A DNA stretch of 58,542 bases from an uncultured Lentisphaeraceae bacterium (GTDB lineage Bacteria; Verrucomicrobiota; Kiritimatiellia; RFP12; UBA1067). Below are positions 24,192-44,935 of the stretch, one piece after another (the stretch's first letter is position 1; each line of letters starts with the position of its first letter). The notes beneath the pieces are model-generated. The model was not told the origin of the DNA. It saw only the letters and a list, made by a program, of their open reading frames with translations, and did not search any database. The DNA is taken from assembly GCA_964390795.1 (NCBI GenBank), contig CAYMLQ010000002.1:1-58542 (forward strand), given 5' to 3'. Both the position numbers and the translations under genes were made by a program.

Positions 24192-24950
24192 TCACTCGGC
24201 CCCGTTCCCTTCGTTCCAGTAGCCTTTGCGGTTGTAATGCTGATGCAGGCTGTCTTCAAATTCGCGGGTGAGCAGCGACCAGTCCGTGTATTCGGGCGAG
24301 CGCTTGATTTCATCGCGGGTCAGGGTGACGAAGACTTTCGAATCATCCCAGCTCACGCGCTCGATCCACTGCGGCGAAGCCAAGACCTTTTTGCCAGGCC
24401 ACCAGTTCAGGGTGTCGATGACGAGGTAGCGGATCGCCCACGTCTCGTCGTCGACGATGAAATCGGACACGTGGCCAAGCTCGCCGTCCGTCGCCTGGAT
24501 GTGATAACCCCGCACCTCGTGCGTGCTGCGCAAATGGGGGTCCCACGCCTTCTGTTTTTGGACGAGTGACGTCCACGCTTCGCGGTCGCGCACGATGTAG
24601 GGATAGGAGCCCCACATGTCTGATCCGCCCCAATACATCGGCCAGCCGTAATACCCGTAGTAGGCCTCCTCGAATTGCAGCGAGACGGGTTTGTCGCTGT
24701 CCAAAGCCGGACTGTCCTCGATCTGCTTTCGCGTCAGATTGACGACAATGTGCTTCTCGTTCTTCTTTACAGCGACCAGCGCGTAGGGCGAAAGCAGAAC
24801 CTGCCTGCCGGTCAGCCAGTGGCCCGTGTCGGCGACCAGATAGCGGACGGTCCAGTGCTGGTCGTCGAAGTAGAATTGCTTGGCCTTTCCGATGTCTCCG
24901 TCAAGGCAGTGTAGGGCGTAACCTTTGAGCGCTTCGGTTTTGATAAGCAT
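24192..24950 (-). CDS. PRC-barrel domain protein (two PRC-barrel repeats)
   Basis: aaggag RBS. Two repeats of the type LKGY.L...DG.IG.V.DF..D...W.IRYLV.DT. ...W..G..VL.SP. Confidence 0.85.
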   Translation of the reverse strand: MLIKTEALKGYALHCLDGDIGKAKQFYFDDQHWTVRYLVADTGHWLTGRQVLLSPYALVAVKKNEKHIVVNLTRKQIEDSPALDSDKPVSLQFEEAYYGYYGWPMYWGGSDMWGSYPYIVRDREAWTSLVQKQKAWDPHLRSTHEVRGYHIQATDGELGHVSDFIVDDETWAIRYLVIDTLNWWPGKKVLASPQWIERVSWDDSKVFVTLTRDEIKRSPEYTDWSLLTREFEDSLHQHYNRKGYWNEGNGAE

Positions 24951-25054: not shown

Positions 25055-25098
25055 AATGTTATACGGGAGCGAACGATTATGCCATGGGGTAAAACCCC
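25055..25098 (-). promoter_or_regulatory. Promoter-like site P-a (GGR-N5-CCCCAT-N22-TAnnnT) upstream of the PRC-barrel gene
   Basis: Minus strand reads GGGGGTTTTACCCCAT, then 22 nt, then TAACAT. About 100 nt upstream of the start at 24950. Confidence 0.6.
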
Positions 25099-25186
25099 CA
25101 CGGGCGAAGTTAGGATTTAGGATTTTGGAGTTGATAATGCGCACCGTGATCTGTCAGCAGCGCGGGTTTTCGATAGGCGTTGAAGT

Positions 25187-25229
25187 AGGATTAAACCCCA
25201 TCGCCTAACGTTAGGGTGCGGGCTATACT
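25187..25229 (+). promoter_or_regulatory. Promoter-like site P-g upstream of the entericidin-like gene
   Basis: Plus strand reads AGGATTAAACCCCAT, then 22 nt, then TATACT (25224-25229). The ATG lies 30 nt downstream. Confidence 0.6.
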
Positions 25230-25258: not shown

Positions 25259-25387
25259 ATGAGAAAGCTATTCATGGTTCTGGCGCTGTTCGGTGTGGCC
25301 GTGTCTGTTACCGCGTGCAATATGCTCCGGGGGGCGGGACGGGACATCGAGAAGGTCGGCGATTCGATACAGGATGCTGCCAGCTAG
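25259..25387 (+). CDS. Entericidin A/B-family small lipoprotein (42 aa; below the ORF-track cutoff)
   Basis: aaggagg RBS. MRKLFMVLALFGVAVSVTACNMLRGAGRDIEKVGDSIQDAAS has a lipobox (VTAC) and the entericidin pattern CN..RG.G.DI...G..I..AA. Confidence 0.8.
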   Translation: MRKLFMVLALFGVAVSVTACNMLRGAGRDIEKVGDSIQDAAS

Positions 25388-25486
25388 CTGCGCGAGCGCC
25401 TGGTGATCGGCGGCTGGGTGGCGATGTGGCGTCCCCAACCACATTTCCCTTCTCTGATGAGGTTCCTGCCGCTTTCACCTGAACGC

Positions 25487-25639
25487 TTACGGAGCCGCGC
25501 TCGCAACCGTCGCAGGGCTCGTAGGCGAAGTGAAGCGAATGCTGGCCCATAACAAGGAAATGGCCAGCAGGCCGCATCCGAAAGTAAGGGCGGTCGCAAT
25601 CAGAATATTCACGATGTGCTCGCTTTGGTTGAGTGTCAT
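25487..25639 (-). CDS. Possible small membrane protein (50 aa)
   Basis: aaggaaggg RBS-like sequence upstream. MTLNQSEHIVNILIATALTFGCGLLAISLLWASIRFTSPTSPATVASAAP has one hydrophobic helix. It lies downstream of promoter-like site P-d. No homology recognised. Confidence 0.3.
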   Translation of the reverse strand: MTLNQSEHIVNILIATALTFGCGLLAISLLWASIRFTSPTSPATVASAAP

Positions 25640-25769
25640 GGTCGTTCCCTTCCTTTTCGATTTCAACTACCTTGGAGGCGAAGCCAGCCCTCTTCAGAGC
25701 CGCCGGTTTAAACGACACCACACTGTTACGATTAGCTTTCACGTGAACGAAATCCTTTGTGTTTGTATT

Positions 25770-25812
25770 AGATTAAGCGGATGCGCCCGTCGATTCTATG
25801 GGGTGTAACCCT
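25770..25812 (-). promoter_or_regulatory. Promoter-like site P-d
   Basis: Minus strand reads AGGGTTACACCCCAT, then 22 nt, then TAATCT. It points toward the small ORF at 25487-25639. Confidence 0.5.
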
Positions 25813-26277
25813 ATGTCATATAACTGCCAAACGCATTCGCATCGACTGCGCGTATCACCCCCGGCATCCAATTCTTCAATCTTGGCTGCGGGAAGGATGC
25901 GGGATAAAATGTTGTCGATTACCGACAACCCCGTGCTCGTTCTGACAGGCCGGCTTGAGCGGAACGGCCGCGTAAGGGCCGCAGAAGCGGGTGCCGATGG
26001 CATTCTCAACAGCCCCGTTGACGATCTTGAGCTGCTCGTCCAGGGCAAGCAGACGCTTGCCCCTCCCGTGTGTTTTGTGCCCGTCTTATGGTCAAAAAAT
26101 ATTTCGGCGGTGGTATCCGAGCGGCGGAATCCCCGTAACCCGCCGCCGGCTCCCGGTATCCGCTTTGGATTTATCCGCGCTAGAACGGATTACGATATGG
26201 AGGTAAAGCAGACTCTATTTGCACGGAATACGCCGCAGCAGTTCGACTAACAGCGTATCCGGCGACGTGTGGGACTA

Positions 26278-26559
26278 TCAGACCTTGACCACGCTGTTAC
26301 GGCTTCCATACTCATTCGCAACGGACTCCGCGCAGGCGGGATCCAGGCGCCAGACGCCGTCGATGATGAACTTGTATTCGTGGAGCCCCGGCAGAAGCTG
26401 CACCTGCGCTTCATGACGTCCGGTGTCCGGATTGTACCGCAGCGGATCCGCGGTGGGGTTCCAGTTGTTGAACGTGCCCACGACATAGGCCTGACAGTCC
26501 GCCTTCGCTGCCAACTCGAAACGCGCGCGTTTCAACAGCGCTTCAATTGAGTTCTTCAT
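26278..26559 (-). CDS. Stand-alone CBM48/AMPK-beta-like glycogen-binding-module protein
   Basis: gaggag RBS. YVVGTFNNWNP....L......G.HEAQVQLLPGLHEYKFIIDGVW..DP is the CBM48 signature. Confidence 0.8.
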   Translation of the reverse strand: MKNSIEALLKRARFELAAKADCQAYVVGTFNNWNPTADPLRYNPDTGRHEAQVQLLPGLHEYKFIIDGVWRLDPACAESVANEYGSRNSVVKV

Positions 26560-26580: not shown

Positions 26581-26958
26581 TCATATCCGAACGACGCTGT
26601 TGGGCTCGCCTGTTGCGTCAGGGACGCAGTGGGGGCACCTGGCATCCCTTTGCCAGACGCCGTTCACCACGAACTTGTACTCGTATGTGCCTGCTGGTAG
26701 CAGCAGGGTCGCCCGGAAGACGCCGTCCTCCGGACGGTGGTTCAACGGATGCGTATACGGGTTCCAGCCGTTAAAGGTCCCGGCGACGTAGACCTTGCTG
26801 CTCGGGTCTGCGGCGACCTCGAACTCGACCGCTTTTCCCGTCTCGAGGGCCATCAGCCGCATCAGATAGTTGAGATACGAGGATGACTTGCGCGACCTTG
26901 TTCGGGTTGAACCTGTCGCTTGGGCTTGCGAGGGCCTTTCAGTCGTGGCGGTTGGCAT
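26581..26958 (-). CDS. Stand-alone CBM48-like protein with a basic, low-complexity N-terminal extension
   Basis: aggag RBS. VYVAGTFNGWNP..HPL....EDGVFRATLLLPAGTYEYKFVVNGVW. Paralog of the downstream gene. Confidence 0.8.
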   Translation of the reverse strand: MPTATTERPSQAQATGSTRTRSRKSSSYLNYLMRLMALETGKAVEFEVAADPSSKVYVAGTFNGWNPYTHPLNHRPEDGVFRATLLLPAGTYEYKFVVNGVWQRDARCPHCVPDATGEPNSVVRI

Positions 26959-27009: not shown

Positions 27010-27052
27010 ATGGTAAGCCCCTCGACACGTTTCTGCAATGGGGTCATTTCCT
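27010..27052 (-). promoter_or_regulatory. Promoter-like site P-f upstream of the CBM48 gene pair (weakest upstream half-site)
   Basis: Minus strand reads AGGAAATGACCCCAT, then 22 nt, then TACCAT. About 50 nt upstream of the start at 26958. Confidence 0.5.
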
Positions 27053-27068
27053 ACCTTGAGCGGCGGCT

Positions 27069-27455
27069 TCAGACCTCCAGCGACAGCGCATCGGTCGGGC
27101 AGCACTGCATCGCGTGCAGGCAGGTCGCTTCAAGGCGGGGAGGCACGGAGGTCATTCTGACGTGCGCACGGTCGCCGGACAGCTCGAAGACCTCGGGACA
27201 GGTACGCGTACACTGCCCGCAGCCGGTGCAGAGGACCGGGTCGATCTTAGCCAGCAAAAAGGAGGCCTCGTCAGCGCCGGCGCCGGGCAACGGCGCCGGC
27301 TCCTCAGCCTTTGGCGGCGCGTTCTCACGCTCCAGAAAGCGCTCGAACAGATGCCTGGCCTCGGACGAGCGGGCTGTCCGGGCCATATGCTGCGCATGCG
27401 ACACCAGACGTTGATCACAGGTTTTCGCTTCCGTAATGCGAAAGGTCAAGGGCAT
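27069..27455 (-). CDS. Protein with a C-terminal single-cluster ferredoxin domain and an N-terminal domain of unknown function
   Basis: aggagg RBS. C-terminal IDPVLCTGCGQCTRTCPEVFEL.......CLHAMQCCPTDAL carries the CxxCxxC...CP pattern. Confidence 0.75.
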   Translation of the reverse strand: MPLTFRITEAKTCDQRLVSHAQHMARTARSSEARHLFERFLERENAPPKAEEPAPLPGAGADEASFLLAKIDPVLCTGCGQCTRTCPEVFELSGDRAHVRMTSVPPRLEATCLHAMQCCPTDALSLEV

Positions 27456-27511: not shown

Positions 27512-27554
27512 ACGATACACGATCAGTGACCCCGGCGGTATGGGGAGTTCCCCC
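27512..27554 (-). promoter_or_regulatory. Promoter-like site P-e upstream of the ferredoxin-domain gene
   Basis: Minus strand reads AGGGGGAACTCCCCAT, then 22 nt, then TATCGT. About 55 nt upstream of the start at 27455. Confidence 0.6.
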
Positions 27555-27650
27555 TAGCCCGCGCCGGAGACGGGGTGCGCGGCAACCAAGCCCGCCGCCC
27601 GGGATTCAGGAGCAAACGTCCGCAGGGCACGGGGAACGGCGGCGTGGACT

Positions 27651-27789: not shown

Positions 27790-27820
27790 ACCGGCGAGCC
27801 CGCCGGAGGTCAGTGGTCGG
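27761..27820 (-). terminator. 16-bp perfect stem that includes the stop codon of the last kinase gene
   Basis: ccgaccactgacctcc (27761-27776) pairs with ggaggtcagtggtcgg (27805-27820). The loop contains a second small hairpin, ccggcg/cgccgg. Confidence 0.5.
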
Positions 27821-28925
27821 GCGGCAGCTCGACGGTGAAGACCGCGCCGCGCGGCTTGCGCTCCTCCACGTAGATGCGGCCGCCATGCGCCTCCGCCACC
27901 ATGCGGCAGAAGGTGAGGCCCAGGCCGGTCTGGCGCGCAGCGAACGCTTTCATTTTGACGCAGGCGAATTTGTCGAAAATCGCCTCGCGAAAGCCCACCG
28001 GAACGCCCGGCCCCTCGTCTTCGACATGGATCTGGCAGACGGGCTGTTTGCCGTCGGCGGGGCAGACGCGCAACTGTACCTCGCTGTTTTCCGGGGAGAA
28101 CTTGACGGCGTTGGACAGCAGGTTGTCGATCAGGCGCACCAGCAGGCCTTCGTCCGCGTCAACCAGGCAAGGCGCTTCGGGCACCTCGATTCGGATGCGG
28201 ATGCGCTTCGCCTCGGCGTGCGGAAGCAGGCTCAGCGCGGCGGTGCGAGCCCGCTCGGTCAGATCCACGCGGGTGCGGTTCAGCTTGAAGCCCGTGTGCT
28301 CCATGCGCGAGACTTCGAGCAGGTCGGTGACAAACCGGTCGGCCAGATCCACCTGACTGCGGATCGTCCGGGCAAGCGCACGGGCGGGCGGGGGGACGTC
28401 GAGCGCCTCGATCCGCAGCGCGGACAGCATGATTCCCAGGAGCGGGTTGCGGAGGTCGTGAACGATCATGTCCGACAGCTCTTCCCTCAGGCGCAGCAGG
28501 GCGTTGCGCTCGTCATAAAGCCGCTTCAGGCAGAGCGCGTTGCGCACGCGCAGCAAAGCCTCCTCGGTGTCGATCGGCTTGGTGATGAAGTCGTTGGCGC
28601 CGCTCGCCACGCCTTTCAGACGGTCGGCCCGCTCGTGCAGCGCCGTGACCAGCAGCACGGGGATGGGGGCGGTGAGGGCGTCGGCCTTCAGGCGGCGGCA
28701 GACCTCCATCCCGTCTAGCCGGGGCATCATCACGTCCAGCAGGATCACGTCCGGCTGCGACGCGGCGACCTCGCTGAGGGCTTCCTCGCCGTCGGCCGCA
28801 TCGAAGACGGTATAGCCGTGCATGGACAGGATGTCGCAGAGGAGCCGACGGCTCATCTCGTCGTCATCGACGACCAGCACGCGGCCCGCTGCGGCGGCAG
28901 CGTGAACGTCTGTCTTTGCAATCAT
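27810..28925 (-). CDS. Hybrid response regulator-histidine kinase (REC + HisKA + HATPase_c)
   Basis: REC: VLVVDDDEMSRRLL...DVILLDVMMPRLDG. H-box: VHDLRNPL. Followed by an HATPase_c-type C-terminal region. Confidence 0.9.
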   Translation of the reverse strand: MIAKTDVHAAAAAGRVLVVDDDEMSRRLLCDILSMHGYTVFDAADGEEALSEVAASQPDVILLDVMMPRLDGMEVCRRLKADALTAPIPVLLVTALHERADRLKGVASGANDFITKPIDTEEALLRVRNALCLKRLYDERNALLRLREELSDMIVHDLRNPLLGIMLSALRIEALDVPPPARALARTIRSQVDLADRFVTDLLEVSRMEHTGFKLNRTRVDLTERARTAALSLLPHAEAKRIRIRIEVPEAPCLVDADEGLLVRLIDNLLSNAVKFSPENSEVQLRVCPADGKQPVCQIHVEDEGPGVPVGFREAIFDKFACVKMKAFAARQTGLGLTFCRMVAEAHGGRIYVEERKPRGAVFTVELPPDH

Positions 28926-29320
28926 CGGTTCGCGGTATCCCCGGCCGGGGCCGTGCCGCCCAAGCAGGCCTCGATACGCCGCAGCAGTCCGGGCACGTCA
29001 AACGGTTTGGTGATGCAGATGTCGCAGCCCGCGGCCAGAATCCGGGCGGCGTCTCCGGCCATGGCGTAAGAGGTCAGCGCCCAGGTCGGGATATCGCGTG
29101 TCAGCGCGTCACCCTTCAGCGTCCGCGTCGCCTCGTACCCGTCCATGAGCGGCATCTGGATATCCATCAGAATCAGGTCGGGCAGGTGTTCCCGCGCGCG
29201 CTTGACACCCTCGATCCCGTTGTTCGCCGAGAGCACCCTGTAGCCCTTCACGGTCAGCAGGTCGACGAGCAGCTTCCTGTTCCGCAGGTCATCCTCCACA
29301 ACCAAAATCGTGTGCTTCAT
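28922..29320 (-). CDS. Single-domain CheY-like response regulator
   Basis: ILVVEDDLRNRKLL...DLILMDIQMPLMDG...TSYAM. ATGA overlaps at both ends. Confidence 0.9.
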   Translation of the reverse strand: MKHTILVVEDDLRNRKLLVDLLTVKGYRVLSANNGIEGVKRAREHLPDLILMDIQMPLMDGYEATRTLKGDALTRDIPTWALTSYAMAGDAARILAAGCDICITKPFDVPGLLRRIEACLGGTAPAGDTANR

Positions 29321-32106
29321 GAGAGCACCTCTGCCGTGTGCGACTGAACCGCAGACAGGGCACCAACGGGAATCGCAAACGTGAAGCGGCTACCGTGTCC
29401 CTCGCCTGCGCTTTCCACCCAGATGCGGCCCCCGTGCAGGCCCACCAGTTGCCTGGCCAGGCTGAGCCCCAGACCGGTGCCCGGCGTCTTGTCCGCAGCG
29501 CCCTGCTTGACCTGATAGAACGGCTCGAAAATATGTTTCTGATGCTCCGCCTCGATGCCGATGCCGCTGTCGGCCACCGACACTTCGAGCTGCGGGACGG
29601 GCTCGTCCGTCAGCCGCGCCTGCACGCGGATCAGGCCGCCGTCTGGCGTGAACTTGGTCGCGTTTGAAAGCAGGTTGTAAAGGATCTGTTTAAGACGGCG
29701 CTCGTCGGCCGTCACCATCAGGCTGCGGACGGGGTCTGACATGTCGAAGTCCAGCCGGATGCCGTGCTTGAAGCAGCGCTCCCTGACGAGGACGCGGCTG
29801 CTCTCCAGCAGATCCCCCGCGTTGAAGCGCGTGAAGGCGGGCTCCATCTTGCCGGCCTCGATTTTGGACAGGTCGAGGATGTCGTTGATCAGGCTGAGGA
29901 GGTGCCGGCCGCTCTCGTAGACGTCGGTGACATACTCTTTCTGCTTGGCGGTGAGCGAGCCGAAGTACTCGTGCTCCAGCACTTGGGAAAACCCCATGAT
30001 CGCGTTCAGGGGCGTGCGCAGCTCGTGGCTCATCGACGCCAGAAAGTCCGACTTGGCCTGGCTGGCGCGCTCCGCCTCGACTTTGGCCTGGCGCAAGGTC
30101 ATCTCCGTCTCCTTGCGCTGCCGGATGTCGCGGATCACGCTCAGGAGCATCTCCTGCCCTTCGATGACCACGCCACGGGAGCTGACCTCGACCGGCACGC
30201 TGCTGCCGTCCTTGCACACGTGGACGCTTTCAAAGAGGAAGCCCTGAACCCGCGCCCGCTGCATCTGGAGATCCACGACCTCCGCATCCTCTTGCCGCAG
30301 CGCGTGGATCCGCAAGTTGAGAAGTTCCTCTTTGGGATACCCGTAGAGTTCCACGGCGGCCTGGTTGGCCTCGATGACGTGGCCTTCCAGATCCACCAGC
30401 AGCAGCGGGTCGCGGGCATACTGGGCGATCAGCTCGTAGCGGGCCTTCACCGCCTCGGCGAGCTTGAGCCCCGTGATGTCCTGAGTGGTGCCGAAGCCGC
30501 CCAGCAGCGTGCCGGCGGAGTCGACCTCTAGCTCGGCCCGCTCGCGAACCCACTTGACGGCGCCGCCGACGAGGATGCGGTGCTCGACGTCGTAAGGCTC
30601 GCCGCGCAGCGCAGCGGCCCACTTGGCGTCCACATACGCCCGGTCGTCCGGATGGATCGTGCTAAGGAAAGTCTCGTAGGTCAGCGGCGTCTCTTTCGGG
30701 ACACCGAAAATACGACAGTTCTCATCCGACCAGAGGAGTTCGTTGCGCTGGAGGTTCAGGCGCCAACTGCCGACGTGCGCCACGGACTGGGCGCGGGCCA
30801 AATCTTCCCGGCTTTCGCGCAGCACCTCGAGATCCCTCTGCCGCTGCATGGCCACTGCCACGTGCTCGGCGACGGCGTCCATCAGCGAGAGGTCATCGGC
30901 GCTGAAGGTTGCCCGCTTGCGCGAGCCAAACGAAAGGGTCCCGAGCAACCGGTTATGCGACAGCAGCGGTTGGCAGCTATACGCCTGCACGCCGTAGCCG
31001 GCCAGCAGCACCATGCGCGGGTCGTTGGCGTGCGGGATGTTCTCGAAGACCAGGCGCCGTTGCTCGTCGAACACGCAGGTGACGCCGCAGACGCAGGCGT
31101 TGACCTGGCCGATCTTTTCCGCATCGGCAGTCGGGAAGCCGGCGCAGGCGTTGAGCAGGAGGCGGCCTGACGGCTCGTCCGCGAGGAAGTTCAAAAACAC
31201 GTCGCACGCCAAGAATTCCATGACCGCCGTGCAAAGTTCGTTGATGACATGGCGGGGCTCGTCGGCAGCCAGCAGGCGGTGAGCGGTGTCGGCGAGGAGT
31301 TCCTCGCGGCGGCGGCGGCGCTCTAGCTCGCGCTCTGCGGCCAGGCGCGCGGTGATGTCGTTGGCGAGCACGAGACGGCAGGGCCGGCCGCTGAACGGGA
31401 TGGAGCTGGCCGTGATCTCGACGTCGATCGGCGTGCCGTCTCTCTTCTGGTGGACAAGAACGCCCACGTGGACGTTCTTCAGCCCCTTCTGGCTTTTGAT
31501 CACAGCCCGCGCCCGCTCCCGCTCTTCCGCCGGGCGGATGTCCAGCACCGTGAGCGCAAGGAGTTCGTCGCGGGTGTAGCCGTAGTGACGCAAGGCTGCG
31601 GCGTTGACGGCGAGGAACCGGAACGTCTCCTCGTCGAAGACCCACATCGGGTTCGGGTTGGCCTCGAACAGCAGGCGGAACTGCGCCTCGCTGGCGCGGA
31701 GCTGGCTCTCCGCTTGCCGCTGCTGGCGGCGCACCTCGGCGTCGCGCAGCTCGCGGGCGATCGCCGGGTTCAGACGGGTCAACTTGTCCTTGAGCACGTA
31801 GTCGTGCGCGCCCGCCTTCATGACCGCCACCGCCTGCTCCTCGCCGATGACGCCCGACACGACGATGAACGGCAGGTCCACGCCGGACTGCTGCACAAGC
31901 GCCAGGGCCTCCGCGCCGTTGAACAGCGGCAGGCGGTAGTCGCTGAGCACGATGTCCCACGGCTCTTCGGCCAGGGCGGCGCAGAGTTCGGCCGCGGTCT
32001 GGGCGCGCCGGTAAGCAGGCTCGTAGCCGCCCTGCCGCAGCGTGCGCAGCAGCAGCAGCAGGTCGTCGTCATTGTCCTCGACGATCAGGACGCGCAGGGT
32101 GCTCAT
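29317..32106 (-). CDS. Hybrid sensor kinase: REC-PAS-GAF-PAS-PAS-HisKA-HATPase_c
   Basis: N-terminal REC ([10 protein letters not shown]...[12 protein letters not shown]). H-box [17 protein letters not shown]-box [13 protein letters not shown]. The PAS/GAF calls come from sequence character and are approximate. Confidence 0.9.
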
Positions 32107-32570
32107 GGGTTGTTCCTGAACTTCGGGGCCGCGACGTTGATCACCAGCCAGTAGAGGCCGAGTTGGCGGACCGCCTCGGTGAACGCGGTGAAATCGATCG
32201 GCTTGCGCACGTAGCTGTTGCAGCCCTGGGCGTAGCTTTCGGCCACGTCGCGGTCCTCAAGCGACGAGGTCAGCATGATGACCGGCAGCAGCCGGGTGCG
32301 CTCGTCGCCGCGGATGCTGCGCAACACTTCCAGCCCGTCCACCTTGGGTAGCTTCAGATCCAGCAGGATCAGCTCCGGCACCTCCTGCGTGTCGCGCCCG
32401 GCGTACGCGCCGGTGCCGAACAGGTAGTCGAGCGCCTCGACGCCGTCGCGGGCGATCACCACGTCGTCGCGGATGTTGTTCTTCTTCAAGGCGCGCAGCG
32501 TGAGCGCCTCGTCGCCAGGGTTGTCTTCCACCAGCAAAATCGTCCGTTTGTCGGTGCCAAGTGAGTTCAT
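32103..32570 (-). CDS. Single-domain response regulator (Rcp1-like)
   Basis: [14 protein letters not shown]...[13 protein letters not shown]...KP.DF. The ATG at 32570 has aaggag 6-7 nt upstream. An alternative ATG at 32594 would give an ATGA overlap with the upstream kinase. Confidence 0.85.
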
Positions 32571-32590
32571 GGGATGCTCCTTGTTCGCTT

Positions 32591-35500
32591 TCATTGTGCC
32601 GCTTTCACCGGCTCGGGCGCAAGGGTGAAATAGAAGGTCGCGCCGCGTCCGGGGGCCGCGTCGGCCCAGATCCGCCCGCCGTGGCGCTGGATGACGCGAG
32701 CCACTGTGGCCAGGCCGATACCGGTGCCGGGAAACTCCTGCGCCGTGTGCAGCCGCTGGAAGGCCTTGAAGAGCTTGCCCGCGTACTGCATGTCGAAGCC
32801 GACGCCGTTGTCCCGCACGAAGAAGACGGGGGGGGGCGGAGATCGGAGGTCGGAGGTCGGAGATCGGAGGTCGGAGGTCGGAGATCGGAGGTCGGAGGTC
32901 GGAGATCGGTGATCGGAGGTCGGAGTATCGTTAGCATCCGTCAGCGCGCCGATCTCCGACTGCTGACTGCCGACTGCCGACCTCTGACCTCCGACCTCCA
33001 CCCCCACCTCAATGACTGCCGCGGGGGTCTTCCCCGTGAACTTCCAGGCGTTCGCCAGCAGGTTGAAGAGTGCGGCATACCACAGCCGGGCGTCGCCCAC
33101 GGCTGTCAGGCCCGGCGCGATGCGGATGTCGACGCTGCGAGCGGGCTCGCGTTCTTGGAGCTGGCGGACGGCCGCACGGGCCAGCGCCGTCAGATCCACC
33201 GGCTCGCGGCGCATCTGGTCGCGGGTCACTCGCGAGAGGCGGAGCAGGTCGTCGATCAACTGGTCCATCTGCCGGCAGCCGTTGCGGACGCGGTTCAGGT
33301 AGTCACGCCCGGTGTCGTCGAGGCGTTCGCCGTAGTCTTCGAGCGCCGCCTGGCTGAAGCCGTCGATGCTCCGCAGGGGGGTGCGCAGGTCGTGCGAGAC
33401 CGAGTAGCAGAACGCCTCCAGCTCGCGGTTGGCCGACTCCAGCTCGGCGGTGCGCTGGAGCACGCGCTGCTCGAGCTGCTCGTTCAGGCTGCGGAAGGCC
33501 GTCTGGGCTTGGATCAGGCCGTCGACATTGATCGCGGTGCCGAACCAGCGCACGATCTCGCCGGCCTCGTTGCGGATCGGGCGTGCGCGCACCTTGAACC
33601 ATTCGTAGACGCCGTCCTGTCGGCGGACGCGGTATTCGAGGTCGTAGGGTTCGCGTCCTTCGACCGCCGCGCACCAGGCCGCGTACGCGCGCGGGCGATC
33701 GTCGGGATGCAGCAGCCTGTTCCAGCCGTCGCCCACATGCTCGGCCATCGGCACGCCGGTGAACTCTACCCACTGCTGGCTCTGGTAATCGCAGTACCCG
33801 TCCGGCCGCGTCGTGAAGGTCATGCCGGGAACCGATTCGAGGGTCTGCCGGTAGAACGACTCGCTCTCGCGCAGCGTCGCGGTCAGGCGGTCGCGCTCCG
33901 CCAGCAGGCGCGCGAGCTTGACGTTGCTGAAGCCGAGCTGGGCGATCATGTCGGCCAGCTTGAGGAAGAACGCCACGCCGCGTTCGACGGTCTCACGCTT
34001 CAGGCGCGGGACGCGGTCCAGCGCGGCTAAATACGCGTTCTCGTCGAAACCGTAGGTCTGGGCCTGGGCGCGGAACAGCTCGCGGTCCGCGGTCTCGCCC
34101 TCGAAGAAAAACTGGCCGGTAAAGATGTTGCCCACGTGCTGGCCGGCCACGAAGATAGGGGTGGACATGTCCCAGAGGTTGTTCTTGCACTTGTAGAGGC
34201 GGTGCTCGCCTGCGGCTAGGCCGGCGGATAGCTCGAGGTCGCTTTCAATGCAATGGCGGCAGGCGGCGGCATGCACGCGGTGGAAGCGGGTGCAGATGTC
34301 CTGCCAGCCTGCGCCTACCAGCACTCGGCCCTTGAGGTCGACGATGGCCACCGGGACTTGGGTCAGCGGGTAGAAGTCGTCCATGAGCCGCTGCAGGGCA
34401 GCGGTGTCCAACAGGTCGGACAGGTCGAGAACGCCCAGGTCGCCCTCGGGCTCGAGCACGCTCGCCAGCTTGCGGCGCACGCGCTCGTCGCTCTCGCGCA
34501 GCGCCTCCTCCGCCTGCTTGCGCACGGTGATGTCGCGGTCGGATTCCAGAATCAGGACATGGCCGTCGGCCGCATGGGTGGCGGTCTGGCGGCTCTCGAT
34601 GGTCACGCGCCGGCCGTCGCGTGTCGTGTGCGTGAGTTCGCCCGCCCAGTGGCCGGTCCGCGCCAGTTGCTCGTCCTTTTCATCTACGCCCGCGCCCTCC
34701 GTGCGCAGCAGCACGTAGGTGCGCTGCCCAAGCGCCTCGGCTGCGGGCCAGCCGTACAGGGCGGCGGCGCCCTGGTTCCAGAAGCGGATGACGCCGCCCA
34801 GCTCGCGCACGATCAGCGCCTCGTTGGCGTGGTTCATCAGCTCGGACTGGTGGCGGAGCTGCGTCTCGGTTTCGCGCCGCGCGGCGTCGGCGCGGTTGAG
34901 GGTCAGGGCGATCCACCAGACCACCGCGAGCAGCGAAAAGAGCATCATCAGCACGAGCAGGCCCGCGCCGACGGGAGCGCCCCATACTCCGGTTCGCTCG
35001 CCGGACTCGTGCAGCCAGCCGAGCAGGACGGGCAGAAGGATGGCCGCAGGCAGGAAGCGCCGCGCCAGTTGGCTGCCAGGGCCGACGCCGGTCAGCACGC
35101 GGGCCAGCCCGTCTTCGCGGGCGAACAGCAGGCCTACGGAAAGCGCCAGAAAGCCCGCCGCCGTATGCAGCGCCATGCTCGTCGCCCCTGCAAACTGGTA
35201 GAGCGGCTTCACGTCGTAGAGATAACCGAGCAAGCCCGTCAGGCTGCACAGGGCGATGGCCAGCGTCAGCGCCTGCTGCGGCCAGCGGCCGCGCGGAGCG
35301 GAGAGCAGCAGGAAGGCCGCGCCGCTCAGCACGAAGCAGAGCGCGGTGACCGGAATCATTCGCCCCGGGTAGAGCGTGTGGGCATCTTGAGCGTCGGCGA
35401 ACAGAAGCTGGTCGAGGCCGAAGTCCAAACCGGAGGCATATTCGGCCAGTGTCAGCCCTGCCACGGCGCACACGAGCCCCGTGCAGAGCAGAGACAACCG

Positions 35501-36244
35501 CTCCGGAGCGCGAAGGCGTTCCGCTCCCGTGGCGGCAGGGTGGAGCGGAACGCCTTCGCGTTCCGGCTTTCCGCGCAGCAGCAGCGCCAGGCCCGCCAGC
35601 AGGAAGCAGAGCGCGGTGTTGGCCTTCATCGTGCCCAAATCCGGGGCGATGCGCTTGAGCGCCTCTACGTCGAAGAGCCAGCCCAGCAGCACCGCCGCGC
35701 CGAGTCCGGCAACCGCCGCGCCGACCGCGGCCGGCATGAGCCGCAGCCACGCGCCTGCAGCGGCAGAAGGCGCTGTGCCCGCGCGCTCGCGGTCGCGCAG
35801 AAGGCGCTGCATCTCGCGGGCGATGATCTCCGCGCGGGCAGGGTCGATCAGCTCGACCTGCTGGCGCAGCGCCGCCTCCGCCGCCTGCGCCGAGGCCGCC
35901 TCGACGTCGGCTTGCGCCCGCGCCGCGCGCAGCCGCGTGCTGACCCAGCCCACGTAAGCGCTGGTGGAAAGCAGGATCGCCGCTCGGACCGCGACGGCGA
36001 GAGTGACCTCAATACCGGGCGGGTCGATGAAGAACCATTCGATCAGCACGATGCCCAGAACCGTGCTGACCAGCCCCGGGCCCGCACCGAGCGTCACCGC
36101 GACCAGCATGATGGCGGGGAAGACCGTGATAAAAGCCACGTTCGTGCCGATCTTCGGCTCCAGCGCCAAGCGCAGCCAGACCGCGACCAGCGCACACAGC
36201 ACGGCGAGCCCGTAGCGCGCGATTCTGTGAGTGGGCGCCTTCAT
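32591..36244 (-). CDS. Large membrane sensor histidine kinase (DUF4118-like N-terminus, multi-TM region, PAS, PocR-like, PAS, HisKA, HATPase_c)
   Basis: N-terminal KdpD-type TM segment. PocR-like block [24 protein letters not shown]-box [22 protein letters not shown] and GTGIGLATV boxes. Confidence 0.9.
32838..32999. repeat. Palindromic heptamer array, 162 nt (54 codons), in frame inside the HATPase_c domain
   Basis: The plus strand has 12 units of ggagatc/ggaggtc, including 3 perfect 21-nt super-units. A spacer follows, then 7 complementary units: gatctcc gactgct gactgcc gactgcc gacctct gacctcc gacctcc. Confidence 0.9.
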
Positions 36245-38937
36245 CCGTTCGCTCCTGCTTCGCTTTGCGCACCCTCGCCTCCGAGCGTGAAGAAGAAGGT
36301 CGCGCCCTGCCCTAGAGCAGACTCGAACCAGACGCGGCCGCCATGGCGGTGGATAACGCGCTGCACCGTGGCCAGGCCAATACCGCTACCGGTGAAATCC
36401 GCGGCCGCGTGCAGCCGCTGGAAGGGCGTGAACAGCTTGTCGGCATACCGCATGTCGAAGCCCACGCCGTTGTCGCGCACGAAGAAGATGGGGGAGGTCG
36501 GAGGACGGAGGTCGGAGGTCAGAGGTTGGGATTCGGAGATCGACGATCGGAGATCGGCGATCGGAACTCTGACCTTAAGCAATGACTCTCCGCCCTCCGA
36601 CCTCTGACCTCCGACCTCTGACTTCCGATCTCCGACCACAAGCCCCATCTCAATCACGGCATCGGCCCGCTGGCCGGTGAACTTCCAGGCGTTCTGCAGC
36701 AGGTTGGTCAGCGCCGCCTGCAGCAGGACCGGATCGCCGGCGGCGCTCAGGCCCGGCGCGATGCGGACGGTGACGGCGCGCGCGGGCTCGGCCTGGCGCA
36801 GGTCGCTGATGACCGCGTGAGCCAGCGCGGTGAGGTTCACGGGCTGGAGCCGCATCTGGGCGCGCGAGAGGCGCGAGAGGCGCAGCAGGTCGTCGATCAG
36901 GCGGGCCATGCGCTGGCAGTTGGAGCGGATGCGGTTCAGGAAGTCTTGGCCGGCCGCGTCGAACCGCAGGCCGTAATCCTCCAGCAGGGCCTGGCTGAAG
37001 CCATCCATGCTGCGCAGCGGGGCGCGCAGGTCGTGCGAGACGGAGTAGCAGAAGGCTTCGAGTTCGCGGTTGGTCGCGGCAAGTTCCGCCGTGCGCGCCT
37101 GGACGCGCTGTTCGAGTTCGGAGTTGAGTTGCGTGAGGGCGTGCTCGGCCTGCAGGCGCTCCAGTTCGCCCGCCGCGCGCACGGCCACCAGTTGCAGGAG
37201 CGATTCCGCCATACGGGTGTCTGCCAGCGGCTGCCGCCCGATGACTGCGATCAGGCCGATGGGCTTGCCCTGCGCGCTCCAGAGCGTGGCGCCTAGGTAA
37301 CTCTCCGCGTGCAAGCTCTGAAGCACCTCGTCCTTGGCAAAAAATGTACAAACGTCTTTTGGAAAGCAGCAGATCCGCTTGCCCACCACATCGCCGCAGG
37401 GGGTGTCTTGCAAGGTGTAGGAGACGTTGTCCTCAAACCTGCCGTCGTGAAAGACGGCCAGCGTCTGAGCCGTGAGCAGTCCCTCCTCCAGCCGGTCGAT
37501 GCAGACAAAGTCCATGGCGAGCGACTGGGCCAGGTAGCGCGCCAGGTCTTGGAAAAAGCCTTCGCCTGAAGCGCTGGTGCCGCACTGCCCCAGGAACCGC
37601 AGGACGTCCTCCGTGCGCTTGCGCTCGGTGATGTTGAAGTGGGAGATGACCGCTCCTTCGGCTCTGTTGCCGCCAATGGGCGTGACGGTCATCAGAAACC
37701 AGCGCTGCTCTTCCGGGCTGTGGCAGGGGTACTCCAGGGTAAACTGCTTGGAGACGCCGGCGAGCACGGCTTCGATGCCGGACAGCGCCTGGGCGGCGTC
37801 GGCGTCGTCTGTGGCGCAGGCGCGGCGGCAGGCTTCCAAGTAATTGGCTCCCACCTGCACCGAGGAGGCGTTCGAGGCGTCGTTCTCGCGTGCGAATTGG
37901 GCCCAGGCTTCGTTGACCGCCACGACACGCCCGTTCCGGTCGGTCACGGCGATATGTGCGGGCAGGGCCTGCAAGGTTTGCCGGTTGAGCTCCTCGCTGG
38001 CCCGCAGGCGCTCCTCTACCTGGAGTTTCGCCACCGCCACCGCGAGGTGGCCGGCCAGGCGCTCCCACAGCGAGAGGGCGTCAGGCGTGAAGGCGTTTTT
38101 GCGCCAAGCGTTCAACTGCAAGAAACCCAGGCGTGACGGGCCGTCATGCAGCGGCAGCAGGGCGAGCGAACCGTACCCCTCCTGGATGCAGGGGTAGTCG
38201 CCTCCCTGCTTCAGTCGGATGCCCACCGCGTCGCAACCGGCATGTTTCTTGAAGAACAGGGCCGATAACCGCAACAGCTCTGCGCTGCCCTTGCTCAGGT
38301 TGACCATGCGCAGGAAGGCGACGGTGAGGTCACGTTCGCGCTGCGAGCGCCGGTTCTCGTTGAGATGGCGCAAGGCGCAGAGGCCGAAGGCCACGTCTTC
38401 CGCCAAGTCGGAAAGCAGACTGCATTCGTCCTCCGTAAACGGATCAGGAAGCCGCGAATACAGCGTCAACGCGCCGATCGTCGCGCCATTTGAGGATAGC
38501 GGAAAGGCGATCGAAGAGGCGTAGCCCCGGCGCAGCGCTTCTTCGCGCCAAGGAACAAATGCGGGATCGGTGAGCATGTTGCGGCACTGGCAGATCTTAC
38601 CCGAGCGGATTGCCCGTCCGGTCGGGCCGCAGCCTCGCTCTGTGTCCGCCCAGGTGAGACTGAGGGTCTCGAGATAGCCCTCTTCAAACCCCGAATAAGC
38701 GGCAGGGCGGATGGTCTTGCCCGCATCGTTTTCCGCAAACCCGATCCAGACCATGGCGTGCCCGCAGTCTTCTACAATGATCCTGCAGACTTCTCGCAGC
38801 AGCGCCGGCTCGTCTTGCAGACGCGCCAGCGCCTTGCTGCCGTTGCGCAGCGCCCGGAGCGTACGGTCGAGCGCGAGACGTCGGGTGTCGCTATTTTGCG
38901 CAAGCTCTCTCGCTTCTTCAACCATTCGGATACCCAT
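36241..38937 (-). CDS. Cytoplasmic sensor histidine kinase (GAF-GAF-PAS-GAF-HisKA-HATPase_c)
   Basis: H-box SHDLRAPLRSMDGFSQ. DNGVGF and GSGIGLATV boxes. The C-terminal catalytic module is paralogous to the downstream kinase. No TM segments seen. Confidence 0.9.
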   Translation of the reverse strand: MGIRMVEEARELAQNSDTRRLALDRTLRALRNGSKALARLQDEPALLREVCRIIVEDCGHAMVWIGFAENDAGKTIRPAAYSGFEEGYLETLSLTWADTERGCGPTGRAIRSGKICQCRNMLTDPAFVPWREEALRRGYASSIAFPLSSNGATIGALTLYSRLPDPFTEDECSLLSDLAEDVAFGLCALRHLNENRRSQRERDLTVAFLRMVNLSKGSAELLRLSALFFKKHAGCDAVGIRLKQGGDYPCIQEGYGSLALLPLHDGPSRLGFLQLNAWRKNAFTPDALSLWERLAGHLAVAVAKLQVEERLRASEELNRQTLQALPAHIAVTDRNGRVVAVNEAWAQFARENDASNASSVQVGANYLEACRRACATDDADAAQALSGIEAVLAGVSKQFTLEYPCHSPEEQRWFLMTVTPIGGNRAEGAVISHFNITERKRTEDVLRFLGQCGTSASGEGFFQDLARYLAQSLAMDFVCIDRLEEGLLTAQTLAVFHDGRFEDNVSYTLQDTPCGDVVGKRICCFPKDVCTFFAKDEVLQSLHAESYLGATLWSAQGKPIGLIAVIGRQPLADTRMAESLLQLVAVRAAGELERLQAEHALTQLNSELEQRVQARTAELAATNRELEAFCYSVSHDLRAPLRSMDGFSQALLEDYGLRFDAAGQDFLNRIRSNCQRMARLIDDLLRLSRLSRAQMRLQPVNLTALAHAVISDLRQAEPARAVTVRIAPGLSAAGDPVLLQAALTNLLQNAWKFTGQRADAVIEMGLVVGDRKSEVGGQRSEGGESLLKVRVPIADLRSSISESQPLTSDLRPPTSPIFFVRDNGVGFDMRYADKLFTPFQRLHAAADFTGSGIGLATVQRVIHRHGGRVWFESALGQGATFFFTLGGEGAQSEAGANG
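36493..36633. repeat. Degenerate palindromic heptamer array, 141 nt (47 codons), in frame at the same HATPase_c loop
   Basis: Left arm: ggaggtc ggaggac ggaggtc ggaggtc agaggtt gggattc ggagatc gacgatc ggagatc ggcgatc. After a spacer, right arm: gacctct gacctcc gacctct gacttcc gatctcc. Confidence 0.85.
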
Positions 38938-43136: not shown

Positions 43137-43322
43137 TCAGGAGAGCGCGATGGCGTTGACGGGGCACTGGTCCTTAGCGTCCGTGCAATCGGACTCCGCC
43201 GCAGCCGGAACGGGGTCAGCGAGGGTGATGGCGACATCACCGCTCATGGCGAAGACAGTCGGGCAAATTTCGGCACAGAGACCGCATCCGACACAAAGAT
43301 CAGCATGGATAATGGCTTTCAT
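43137..43322 (-). CDS. Small single-cluster ferredoxin
   Basis: gaggag RBS. MKAIIHADLCVGCGLCAEICPTVF......C......CPVNAI. Confidence 0.85.
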   Translation of the reverse strand: MKAIIHADLCVGCGLCAEICPTVFAMSGDVAITLADPVPAAAESDCTDAKDQCPVNAIALS

Positions 43323-43389: not shown

Positions 43390-43433
43390 ATGCTAATGAT
43401 TTTGGCGGGATTTGCCTATGGGGTAAACTCCCC
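43390..43433 (-). promoter_or_regulatory. Promoter-like site P-b upstream of the ferredoxin gene
   Basis: Minus strand reads GGGGAGTTTACCCCAT, then 22 nt, then TAGCAT. About 65 nt upstream of the start at 43322. Confidence 0.6.
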
Positions 43434-43451
43434 AAAACCTCCTCATTTCTC

Positions 43452-44114
43452 TTAGACCAGCTTCGCCGCAGCAAATTCCCAGTTGGCAAGATGGTCGAGG
43501 AAGGCTTGGACAAAGTCTTTGCGGCGGTTCTGGTAGTCGAGGTAATACGCGTGCTCCCATATGTCGCAGGTCAGAAGCGCGTTCTGGCCGTAGGCGATGG
43601 GCGTGTCTGCGTTGGCAGTTTTCACAACCCGCACGCTGTCATCGGACTGAACCAGCCAAACGGCGCCGCTGCCGAACTGTCCGACGGCCGCGGCCAGAAA
43701 CGAGGTCTTGAACGACTCGAACGAACCGAACGCCTTTACAAACAAGGCGAGCAGTCTCGGGGGCGGCTGGCCGCCGCCGCCCGGCCGCATGCTTTGCCAG
43801 AAGAGGGTGTGGTTCCAGACCTGCGCGGCATTGTTGAACAGCGCGGCCTTGTCCGTCATTTGTGCGGTGCTTTCAATGAGGTCTTCGAGCGAAAGTGCCG
43901 CGAACTCGGTTCCTGCCGTCATTTTGTTCAGGTTGTCAACGTAGGCGCGGTGATGCTGGCCGTAGTGAAAGCGCAGGGTTTTGGCTGACACAAAGGGTTC
44001 GAGCGCGTCCTGGGCATAGGGTAAAGCGGGCAGCTGAAAGGGGCCCAAAGCAAGGGTTTCATCCGGAGCGGATGAGGCTACCGTTTTGAGCGACTGGTGT
44101 CTCACGTGTCTCAT
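43452..44114 (-). CDS. sodB: Iron superoxide dismutase
   Basis: LPALPYAQDALEP, HYGQHH, FNNAAQVWNHTLFW (Fe-type) and DIWEHAYYLDYQNRR. It carries an N-terminal extension of about 25 aa. Confidence 0.9.
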   Translation of the reverse strand: MRHVRHQSLKTVASSAPDETLALGPFQLPALPYAQDALEPFVSAKTLRFHYGQHHRAYVDNLNKMTAGTEFAALSLEDLIESTAQMTDKAALFNNAAQVWNHTLFWQSMRPGGGGQPPPRLLALFVKAFGSFESFKTSFLAAAVGQFGSGAVWLVQSDDSVRVVKTANADTPIAYGQNALLTCDIWEHAYYLDYQNRRKDFVQAFLDHLANWEFAAAKLV

Positions 44115-44121
44115 GTTGCAA

Positions 44122-44164
44122 AGCTTACTTCGGGCTGCGGAGTCTCGCCATGGGGATTAATCCT
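44122..44164 (-). promoter_or_regulatory. Promoter-like site P-c immediately upstream of sodB (implies a leaderless or near-leaderless mRNA)
   Basis: Minus strand reads AGGATTAATCCCCAT, then 22 nt, then TAAGCT (44122-44127). Only 7 nt separate the hexamer from the ATG at 44114, and there is no SD. Confidence 0.55.
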
Positions 44165-44248
44165 ACTTACGGATGCCGGAATATCGGTTGTGGCATTGTC
44201 GGGATTGTGTTAAAAATTAAATGTCGATTGAAACCGTTGGGACTTGTT

Positions 44249-44935
44249 ATGAAAAAAATTACCGTCTTGTTGGCAGACGACCATAGCGTCGTGCGCGAGG
44301 GTCTTCAGGCTTTGCTTCAGGCAGAGAGCGACCTTCAGGTTGTCGGGCAAGCCTCGACGGGCTTTGAAGCTGTGGAGCTTTCCGTTAGACTGCGGCCGGA
44401 CGTGGTGGTTCTGGATATCGCCATGCCGGTGCTCAACGGGGTGGAAGCCCTGCGGCAGATCCGGGCATCCGTGCCCGGTACCAGGGTGCTGATTCTGTCG
44501 GCCTACTGCAACCCCGCCTGCATCGAGCAGGTTGTCGCGCTGGGCGCAGCGGGCTATCTGATCAAAAAGACCTCGATCCTGATCTTGGCCCAGGCGATTC
44601 GCGAGGTGCAGCAGGGCCGCTGTTTTCTTGACCCGGCCATTCACGTCGCGACTGGCCTCGCTCCCGGCGGTGTCCTGCGGCGTACGGGCACACAGGCGGG
44701 ACACAGCCCGGCGAAGGAAATCGCGCTCACGTCGCGCGAGATCGAGGTGCTGAAGCTGATCGCCGAGGGATTGCTCAACAAGCAGGTCGCCGACCGCTTG
44801 GGCATCAGCGCGAAAACCACCGAGAAGCATCGCTACAGTCTGATGGAGAAGCTTGCCATCCATGATACGGCGGGGCTGACGCGCTATGCCATCGAACTCG
44901 GCCTTGCCGAGCCGACATCCGAGACCGTGGCGTGA
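44249..44935 (+). CDS. NarL/FixJ-family response regulator (REC + LuxR-type HTH)
   Basis: MKKITVLLADDHSVVREGL...VVVLDIAMPVLNG. HTH: LTSREIEVLKLIAEGLLNKQVADRLGISAKTTEKHR. Confidence 0.9.
   Translation: MKKITVLLADDHSVVREGLQALLQAESDLQVVGQASTGFEAVELSVRLRPDVVVLDIAMPVLNGVEALRQIRASVPGTRVLILSAYCNPACIEQVVALGAAGYLIKKTSILILAQAIREVQQGRCFLDPAIHVATGLAPGGVLRRTGTQAGHSPAKEIALTSREIEVLKLIAEGLLNKQVADRLGISAKTTEKHRYSLMEKLAIHDTAGLTRYAIELGLAEPTSETVA

Follow-up and report, generated by a model that had tools for sequence, protein, structure and literature searches.

A phased palindromic box upstream of sodB and ferredoxin genes, and its candidate NarL-type activator, in a Lentisphaeraceae genome

We analysed a 58.5-kb stretch of DNA from an uncultured Lentisphaeraceae bacterium (contig CAYMLQ010000002.1; the whole stretch is called the window below), in which two copies of a promoter motif, P-b and P-c, precede the genes of a ferredoxin and of a superoxide dismutase (SOD), sodB, and a divergent gene beside sodB encodes a NarL-type response regulator. 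All the evidence is in silico, and consists of the conserved architecture of the motif, the content of its regulon, the spacing from the -10 hexamer to the ATG and the physical linkage of regulator and motif, as observed across relatives. The comparison confirms P-b and P-c as predicted promoters of a stress regulon conserved in Verrucomicrobiota and in neighbouring lineages of the Planctomycetes-Verrucomicrobia-Chlamydiae (PVC) group. Taken as a whole, the data are probably best explained by class II activator promoters that serve a stress regulon, by the regulator at 44249-44935 as their activator, and by a leaderless sodB mRNA. The features of the sodB region are listed here.

43137..43322, minus strand: gene of a 61-aa single-cluster 4Fe-4S ferredoxin (Fer4_13), with a 67-nt leader and a GAGGAG Shine-Dalgarno sequence
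43390..43395, minus strand: -10 hexamer TAGCAT of the ferredoxin gene
43419..43433, minus strand: predicted P-b activator box, GGGGAGTTTACCCCA; the same box precedes the ferredoxin gene in locus L081
43452..44114, minus strand: Fe-type superoxide dismutase gene, its ATG 7 nt past the -10 and its predicted transcription start at ~44114
44122..44127, minus strand: -10 hexamer TAAGCT of sodB, with the T, A and T columns invariant in a five-lineage alignment
44145..44150, minus strand: weak -35-like hexamer TGGCGA (family consensus TAGCnn), abutting the P-c box and 17 bp from the -10; a putative -35
44151..44165, minus strand: predicted P-c activator box, TAGGATTAATCCCCA, a 15-bp imperfect palindrome centred ~44 nt 5' of the sodB ATG
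44188..44216, plus strand: putative promoter of the regulator gene, TTGTGG-N17-(TGt)TAAAAA, so assigned from conserved blocks
44249..44935, plus strand: gene of a NarL/FixJ-family response regulator with a receiver (REC) domain and a GerE helix-turn-helix, the candidate activator

Architecture of the box and its phasing to the -10

On the minus strand, P-b (43390-43431) reads GGGGAGTTTACCCCAT-N22-TAGCAT and lies 67 nt 5' of the ferredoxin gene. P-c (44122-44165), on the same strand, reads TAGGATTAATCCCCAT-N22-TAAGCT; its hexamer is followed after 7 nt by the ATG at 44114, which lacks a Shine-Dalgarno sequence. A sequence-only reading of this DNA had placed both sites at these positions with these sequences, and had remarked on the 7-nt distance and the missing Shine-Dalgarno sequence; all of this was found as described. 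The near-identical 20-mer that it had noted between P-c and a further copy, P-g, is present as well, since P-c and the copy at 25184-25204 have the 19/20-mer AAGTAGGATTAA[T/A]CCCCAT in common.

The pattern CCCCAT-N22-TANNNT occurs seven times in the 58.5 kb, against 0.08 matches expected, and 0/100 shuffled sequences reached seven. Exactly the same seven sites were returned by a position-weight-matrix scan with a low threshold and a required in-phase -10 (shuffles: mean 0.7, maximum 2). All seven are upstream of a gene and correctly oriented. A loose pattern, GGR-N5-CCCC(AT) with one mismatch allowed, gave 25 matches in the window where 27 were expected, that is, no enrichment. Because this pattern is not significant alone, we adopted the full box with a phased -10. 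The motif of the sequence-only reading thus stands in its CCCCAT-N22-TANNNT part, which is real and phased, while its GGR-N5-CCCC wording is replaced by TRGGGT-N3-ACCCCA abutting a weak -35. The reverse strand of the element, ATGGGGTAAA, was also tried as a SigB/SigF-like -10 and rejected: the seven genes are all downstream of the element as read in the opposite orientation, and a GTTT -35 is lacking.

Species-representative genomes were scanned with the regulator protein, which yielded orthologs at 47-59% identity in Verrucomicrobiota, in Lentisphaerae/Victivallales and in one metagenome-assembled genome labelled Omnitrophota. In all three, the same element is abundant in the ortholog loci, and its phasing to the -10 is fixed. 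Over 226 non-redundant sites, about half of which were picked with a pattern fixing GTAGG, CCCCATRG and TAnnnT, the consensus is GGTAGGGTTACACCCCATAGC-N19-TAnnnT; frequencies from regulator-centred loci are less biased and agree. The core of the box is a 15-bp imperfect palindrome, TRGGGT-N3-ACCCCA, followed by an adjoining TAGCnn, a 17-bp spacer and the TAnnnT -10. The distance from box to -10 is rigid (N22 +/-1). At some sites the palindrome is perfect (ATGGGGTGnnCACCCCAT). Tandem boxes with a distance of exactly 23 bp are found in the Lentisphaerae/Victivallales loci L007 (8908-8931, 13259-13282, 16009-16032 and 19595-19618), L008 (402-425, 4709-4732 and 6646-6669) and L131, and within such a pair the palindrome is often better in the upstream box.

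A conserved T-A-G follows the palindrome immediately on its 3' side and, at 17 bp from the -10, would represent a weak -35. If transcription starts 6-7 nt after the -10, as the peak of leaderless ATGs described below suggests, the box would be centred at about -43/-44. A site near -41.5 to -43.5, a poor -35, a good -10 and fixed phasing characterize class II promoters, and the predicted box promoters display each of these. A dimeric class II activator is indicated, rather than an alternative sigma factor, because of the housekeeping-type -10, the rigid N22 +/-1 spacing, the palindromy and the tandem copies.

The other five window sites, each a box with its -10, are these.

25056..25101, minus strand: 5' of a PRC-barrel gene (24192-24950)
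25184..25229, plus strand: 5' of an entericidin-family lipoprotein gene (25259-25387)
25770..25815, minus strand: 5' of an uncertain small gene (GTG at 25742)
27010..27055, minus strand: 5' of two CBM48/AMPK1_CBM genes (26581-26958 and 26278-26559)
27512..27557, minus strand: 5' of the gene of a 128-aa Fer4_13 protein (27069-27455)

The uncertain gene is a 144-aa open reading frame (ORF) at 25308-25742 on the minus strand that starts with GTG and shares 80 nt with the 3' end of the entericidin gene, which is convergent to it (25259-25387, plus strand). It has no Pfam match and no homolog among the fetched loci, and the true product below this box may be shorter, for example a 59-aa membrane-like ORF at 25487-25666.

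The divergent regulator and its linkage to the box

The product of 44249-44935 matches the Pfam families Response_reg (1e-23, residues 6-117) and GerE (4.9e-17, residues 160-214), and aligns over its full length with VraR, DevR and NarL, its best solved relatives. The receiver keeps D10, D11, D56 and K106, with D56 aligned to D54 of DevR and D59 of NarL. Both the domains and the phospho-acceptor assign the predicted protein to the NarL/FixJ (LuxR-type) response regulators.

A divergent pair of regulator and SOD genes, with the box in the common spacer, recurs in L081, L082, L086 and L149, where the L149 regulator is 71% identical to that of the window. No SOD gene was found beside the regulator orthologs in 80 genome loci; the pair is specific to the window's own lineage and was found solely via SOD homologs. 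Around 42 regulator orthologs, box density is 0.585/kb in the 500 bp downstream, compared with 0.107/kb beyond 2 kb of the same loci. A box occurs within 500 bp in 15 of these 42 loci, and the target that adjoins the regulator varies from locus to locus (BON, CsbD or a small membrane protein).

Linkage was also examined from the side of the motif, in an unbiased test. Metagenome contigs were scanned for the box itself, and all ORFs of the first 120 loci (640 kb) were clustered. Among the co-located families the regulator comes first (12 loci), followed by the HisKA_3 kinase (11), REC-only proteins (9) and BON proteins (8). Nine regulators at least 49.8% identical to the query are found in the 120 loci, against ~0.13 expected for a single-copy gene (Poisson p ~1e-14), and these nine orthologs fall in 9 of the 48 motif-centred loci of at least 5 kb. 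The 120 loci hold no other recurring DNA-binding family and no gene for an extracytoplasmic function (ECF) sigma factor, and none of the latter is present in the window.

The box also lies 5' of the kinase-regulator operon in L104, L105, L109, L144, L171, L178 and L184; in L029 it stands directly 5' of the regulator gene, and in L039 a box is found ~150 bp 5' of that gene. Placement upstream of the operon is typical of two-component systems under autoregulation. Because other regulatory genes are box-driven too, this position shows only that the operon is a target. The proposal of the sequence-only reading that the divergent NarL-type regulator is the candidate activator is supported by the conserved pair, the top rank in co-location, the operon boxes and a DosR-like box centre, and the window regulator is likely a direct activator of the box promoters.

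We propose that P-b and P-c are promoters of the housekeeping-sigma type that depend on an activator. The phosphorylated regulator would most likely bind the 15-bp palindrome as a dimer and recruit RNA polymerase through contacts that compensate for the poor -35, like DosR at hspX. The sodB transcript would begin at the ATG at 44114 or no more than 1-2 nt from it, and its translation as a leaderless mRNA would yield an SOD with an N-terminal tail of 25 residues; the ferredoxin mRNA would have an ordinary 67-nt leader with a Shine-Dalgarno sequence. Binding by the regulator, activation over repression, phosphorylation dependence, the sigma factor and the inducing signal are parts of this scheme that we infer.

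Several observations weigh against the assignment of the box to this regulator. Its recognition helix reads KTTEKHR where that of DosR reads KTVKNYV, so that specificity is unreadable from homology, and several ortholog loci, including the full 20-kb L010, have no box. In the window the regulator gene has its own sigma-70-like promoter, and the P-c box faces sodB, ~66 nt upstream of the regulator's inferred start. Autoregulation is not evident there, because the sole nearby box points to sodB. Finally, other regulatory genes (REC-only, ECF sigma and PocR-AraC) are likewise preceded by the box. These last genes, being box targets themselves, would fit a different transcription factor, encoded elsewhere, that binds the box, with the NarL-type regulator and its kinase merely a member of the regulon or a neighbour in a stress island; so would the clumping of boxes into islands, in one of which the regulator sits, and the fact that the window regulator is not in a class II position to any box. 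We consider this unlikely, since other DNA-binding families do not recur near the box in the motif-centred sample and the regulator outranks every structural target family in locus number. Its linkage to the box moreover persists while the neighbouring target changes, be it SOD, BON, CsbD or a small membrane protein, and the size of the palindrome suits a GerE-type dimer.

The way in which the box acts is a separate matter. A protein bound to it, next to the -35 region, could equally block polymerase, and the box might thus be an operator at which the window regulator or another protein represses, the stress genes being switched on by repressor release. Such an operator is improbable, as the consistently poor -35 (TAGCnn) with the rigid N22 +/-1 is a signature of activator dependence and matches the geometry of DosR, whereas repressor operators usually tolerate variable positions. 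That the element is instead the recognition sequence of an autoregulated alternative (ECF-type) sigma factor, with CCCCATAG as an unusual -35, would accord with the six ECF sigma genes in regulator-centred loci that are directly preceded by the box at leaderless spacing. We regard it as very improbable: the TAnnnT -10 is of the housekeeping type, CCCCAT at 22 nt from the -10 is too distant for a -35 of the sigma-70 family, perfect palindromes and 23-bp tandem boxes do not fit a sigma factor, and the motif-centred loci and the window are without an ECF sigma gene.

Two further observations concern the regulator gene and the specificity of its product. A block TTGTSG-N17-(TGn)TAAAAA upstream of the regulator gene is conserved in the window, L081, L082 and L086, and given this conserved promoter of its own the regulator may be constitutive in the window's lineage; a class II -10 from the P-c box towards the regulator gene was looked for and not found. 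By inspection, there is no clear co-variation of box variants with the recognition helix of the regulator.

In the window, as in its closest relatives, the regulator is an orphan, and orthologs in L104, L105, L109, L144, L171 and L178 lie directly downstream of a HisKA_3 kinase. The partnership with a HisKA_3 kinase at 19979 that the sequence-only reading had suggested is not supported, the kinase showing generic HisKA_3 similarity only. That protein is a membrane HisKA_3-like kinase with a weak HisKA_3 match that does not reach the Pfam cut-off; its identity to the kinases beside regulator orthologs is 26-30%, in the catalytic core only, and it is without their RsbU_N-like N-terminus. Its gene is wedged between ORFs of 2248 and 978 aa and overlaps the start of the latter. 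The regulator-adjacent kinases are soluble HisKA_3 proteins of ~388 aa (loci L144:7478-9339, L109:5193-7138, L105:3810-6222 and L171:7114-8280) with a weak N-terminal RsbU_N match (E 4.9e-4, below the Pfam cut-off). Ahead of them there is often a paralog of 232-260 aa, which shares their N-terminus, contains the H-box and lacks the ATPase domain. The sequences hint at a partner-switching or stressosome-type input to these kinases. Clusters of REC-HisKA hybrid kinases, single receivers and large PAS kinases adjoin box-rich islands (window 27810-38937, L086:14803-20666, L002:16780-19397 and L008:7714-11324). The hybrid/PAS kinase cluster of the window adjoins its five-box cluster, and the PAS-kinase cluster of L086 adjoins a SOD-ferredoxin-ferritin-YceI cluster. 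These hybrid/PAS kinases of the window and of L086 are equally plausible inputs, possibly through a phosphorelay.

SOD and the predicted leaderless sodB mRNA

The window SOD comprises the Sod_Fe_N and Sod_Fe_C domains of Pfam. Its best matches in the PDB are Fe-SODs, namely 6jov (1.7e-76), 1my6 and 1isa, and these closest solved relatives point to an Fe-type (SodB-like) enzyme. The protein begins with a hydrophilic N-terminal extension of 25 residues, and its closest homologs likewise have one of 25-30 residues. In the window's lineage this extension is Pro/Ser-rich, with its length kept and its sequence not. Most PVC homologs of the window SOD (P0001-P0060; the more distant ones) carry Sec- or Tat-type signal peptides instead.

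The box and the -10 are kept 5' of the SOD orthologs in L081, L082, L084, L086 and L149 (66-84% amino acid identity), although the intergenic DNA has diverged. The distance from -10 to ATG is 7 nt in the window, L084, L086 and L149, 8 nt in L082 and 11 nt in L081; five of the six SOD lineages thus keep 7-8 nt. No internal start codon with a Shine-Dalgarno sequence is conserved across the SOD orthologs. Over 228 regulon sites, the opening ATGs of ORFs of 60 aa or more show a sharp peak 6-7 nt past the -10, and such an ATG is found 5-9 nt past the -10 at 36/228 sites, over a background of ~1-2 per offset. Secondary start-codon peaks stem from orthologous families, BON proteins for the one at 14 nt past the -10 and a 65-aa membrane protein for the one at 44 nt, and reflect no general rule. 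In Akkermansia muciniphila, ~10% of start sites are leaderless by Cappable-seq (PMC4782308). Based on the conserved 7-11 nt spacing, the absence of an internal start with a Shine-Dalgarno sequence, the regulon-wide ATG peak and the Akkermansia precedent, the sodB mRNA is very probably leaderless or nearly so, which supports the earlier prediction for this gene.

Alternatively, transcription could begin at ~44114 and translation further downstream, for example at the TTG of codon 23, which would leave a 5' untranslated region of ~66 nt. Initiation at codon 23 would produce the canonical N-terminus M-GPFQLPALPY, solved Fe-SODs align to the window SOD only from residue 26, and the sequence of the 25-residue extension is poorly conserved. 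However, the codon-23 TTG is without a Shine-Dalgarno sequence, whereas other window genes have strong GGAGG-type sites; the SOD orthologs have no start codon equivalent to it, and in 6/6 SOD lineages the frame is open from the ATG 7-11 nt past the -10. A downstream start is thus rather unlikely.

The predicted regulon and its relation to known systems

Across the loci, the genes downstream of the box encode BON/OsmY-like proteins (17), CsbD (8), single-domain receivers (8), ECF sigma factors (6), SOD (6), ice-binding-like proteins (5) and ferredoxins (3). OsmC, YflT, Hsp20, PRC-barrel(+BON) proteins, DUF5670 and other small membrane proteins, a GT4 glycosyltransferase and entericidin also occur. 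In the window itself they comprise the PRC-barrel protein, the entericidin-family lipoprotein, the uncertain small ORF, the two CBM48 proteins, the 128-aa Fer4_13 protein, the ferredoxin and SOD. The predicted targets of the box are a general-stress gene set, the same that is controlled by RpoS, SigB or EcfG in other phyla.

Among the conserved targets of the box is an ECF sigma gene (L021:7839, L029:20257, L037:12855, L040:13509 and L078:5450). Its box has TAGCAC as a variant left half, its predicted start is leaderless at 5-7 nt past the -10, and the gene is often divergent from a BON gene. A box-driven ECF sigma factor suggests a second regulatory tier. Downstream of the SOD and ferredoxin genes, relatives carry ferritin/Dps-like and YceI genes (L081:2398-3568, L084:5064-5534 and L086:13054-14409). 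The window has neither at the corresponding place, and a gene for a 1318-aa GLUG-type surface protein follows the ferredoxin gene instead.

Verrucomicrobiota, Kiritimatiellota and Lentisphaerota are abundant in soil, freshwater and gut and include relatives of Akkermansia; to our knowledge, gene regulation in them is almost uncharted. The searchable literature yielded no description of the motif, of the regulon or of a Verrucomicrobial stress regulator, and the predicted regulon is thus previously undescribed. The analysis supplies a defined cis-element, a predicted stress-protection regulon, a candidate two-component regulator and a concrete prediction of a leaderless transcript. If the predictions are confirmed, stress regulons could be predicted from metagenome-assembled genomes by means of the box, and stress-inducible promoters would become available for genetic tools in Verrucomicrobiota, Kiritimatiellota and Lentisphaerota. 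More tentatively, and with some doubt, the general stress response of Verrucomicrobiota and related PVC phyla might be governed by this NarL-type two-component regulator at housekeeping-sigma promoters, in place of an alternative sigma factor. A soluble HisKA_3 kinase would feed the regulator in many lineages, its RsbU_N-like domain perhaps taking up a partner-switching or stressosome-type signal, and about one in six promoters would give leaderless mRNAs. If true, this would be a fourth, mechanistically distinct design of the bacterial general stress response.

The targets overlap markedly with those of RpoS in Gammaproteobacteria, SigB in Firmicutes and PhyR-NepR-EcfG in Alphaproteobacteria, which include OsmY/BON, CsbD, OsmC, entericidin, YflT, Hsp20, PRC-barrel and SOD. 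The weak RsbU_N-like domain of the relatives' kinase recalls the SigB pathway, where RsbU_N is the module that receives RsbT. Unlike promoters of these sigma-run responses, the box promoters keep a housekeeping-type -10, and their specificity would lie in the upstream palindrome. Control by a two-component activator is therefore most likely, and not replacement of the sigma factor.

NarL and NarP of Escherichia coli belong to the same protein family as the regulator. The half-site core ACCCC resembles the NarL heptamer, TACYYMT, and the perfect palindromes TGGGGTG-NN-CACCCCA are 7-2-7 in length. However, the halves are opposite, the G-rich half coming first in the box and the C-rich half first in the NarL 7-2-7 arrangement, and most box sites are 6-3-6. 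The box regulon also concerns stress protection, in contrast to nitrate respiration.

A likeness in function is offered by DosR/DevR of Mycobacterium tuberculosis and OsdR of Streptomyces, where a NarL-family protein with REC and GerE domains acts at comparable promoters; DevR is the second-best solved relative of the window regulator (E 4.6e-33). The Dev box, TTSGGGACTWWAGTCCCSAA, differs from TRGGGT-N3-ACCCCA in sequence and half-site spacing. VraR scores slightly better than DevR, and K179, K182 and N183 of DosR are aligned with K, E and K in the regulator, which places it outside the DosR orthologous group. The relatives' kinases are soluble HisKA_3 proteins with a weak RsbU_N-like N-terminus, whereas DosS and DosT are GAF/haem sensors. 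Shared features extend to the regulon, which covers stress or dormancy and includes a ferredoxin and alpha-crystallin/Hsp20, and to the tandem boxes at some promoters. The operon of DosR is autoregulated, and here box-preceded operons occur in relatives, with no such arrangement evident in the window. The hspX promoter is reported to have its DosR box centred at ~-43.5, a suboptimal -35 and a -10 of consensus type (PMC13486717); the present promoters would have the same layout, a palindromic box of a G-run and a C-run at this position ahead of a suboptimal -35 and a housekeeping-type -10. The system would thus work like DosR/DevR without its regulator being an ortholog of DosR.

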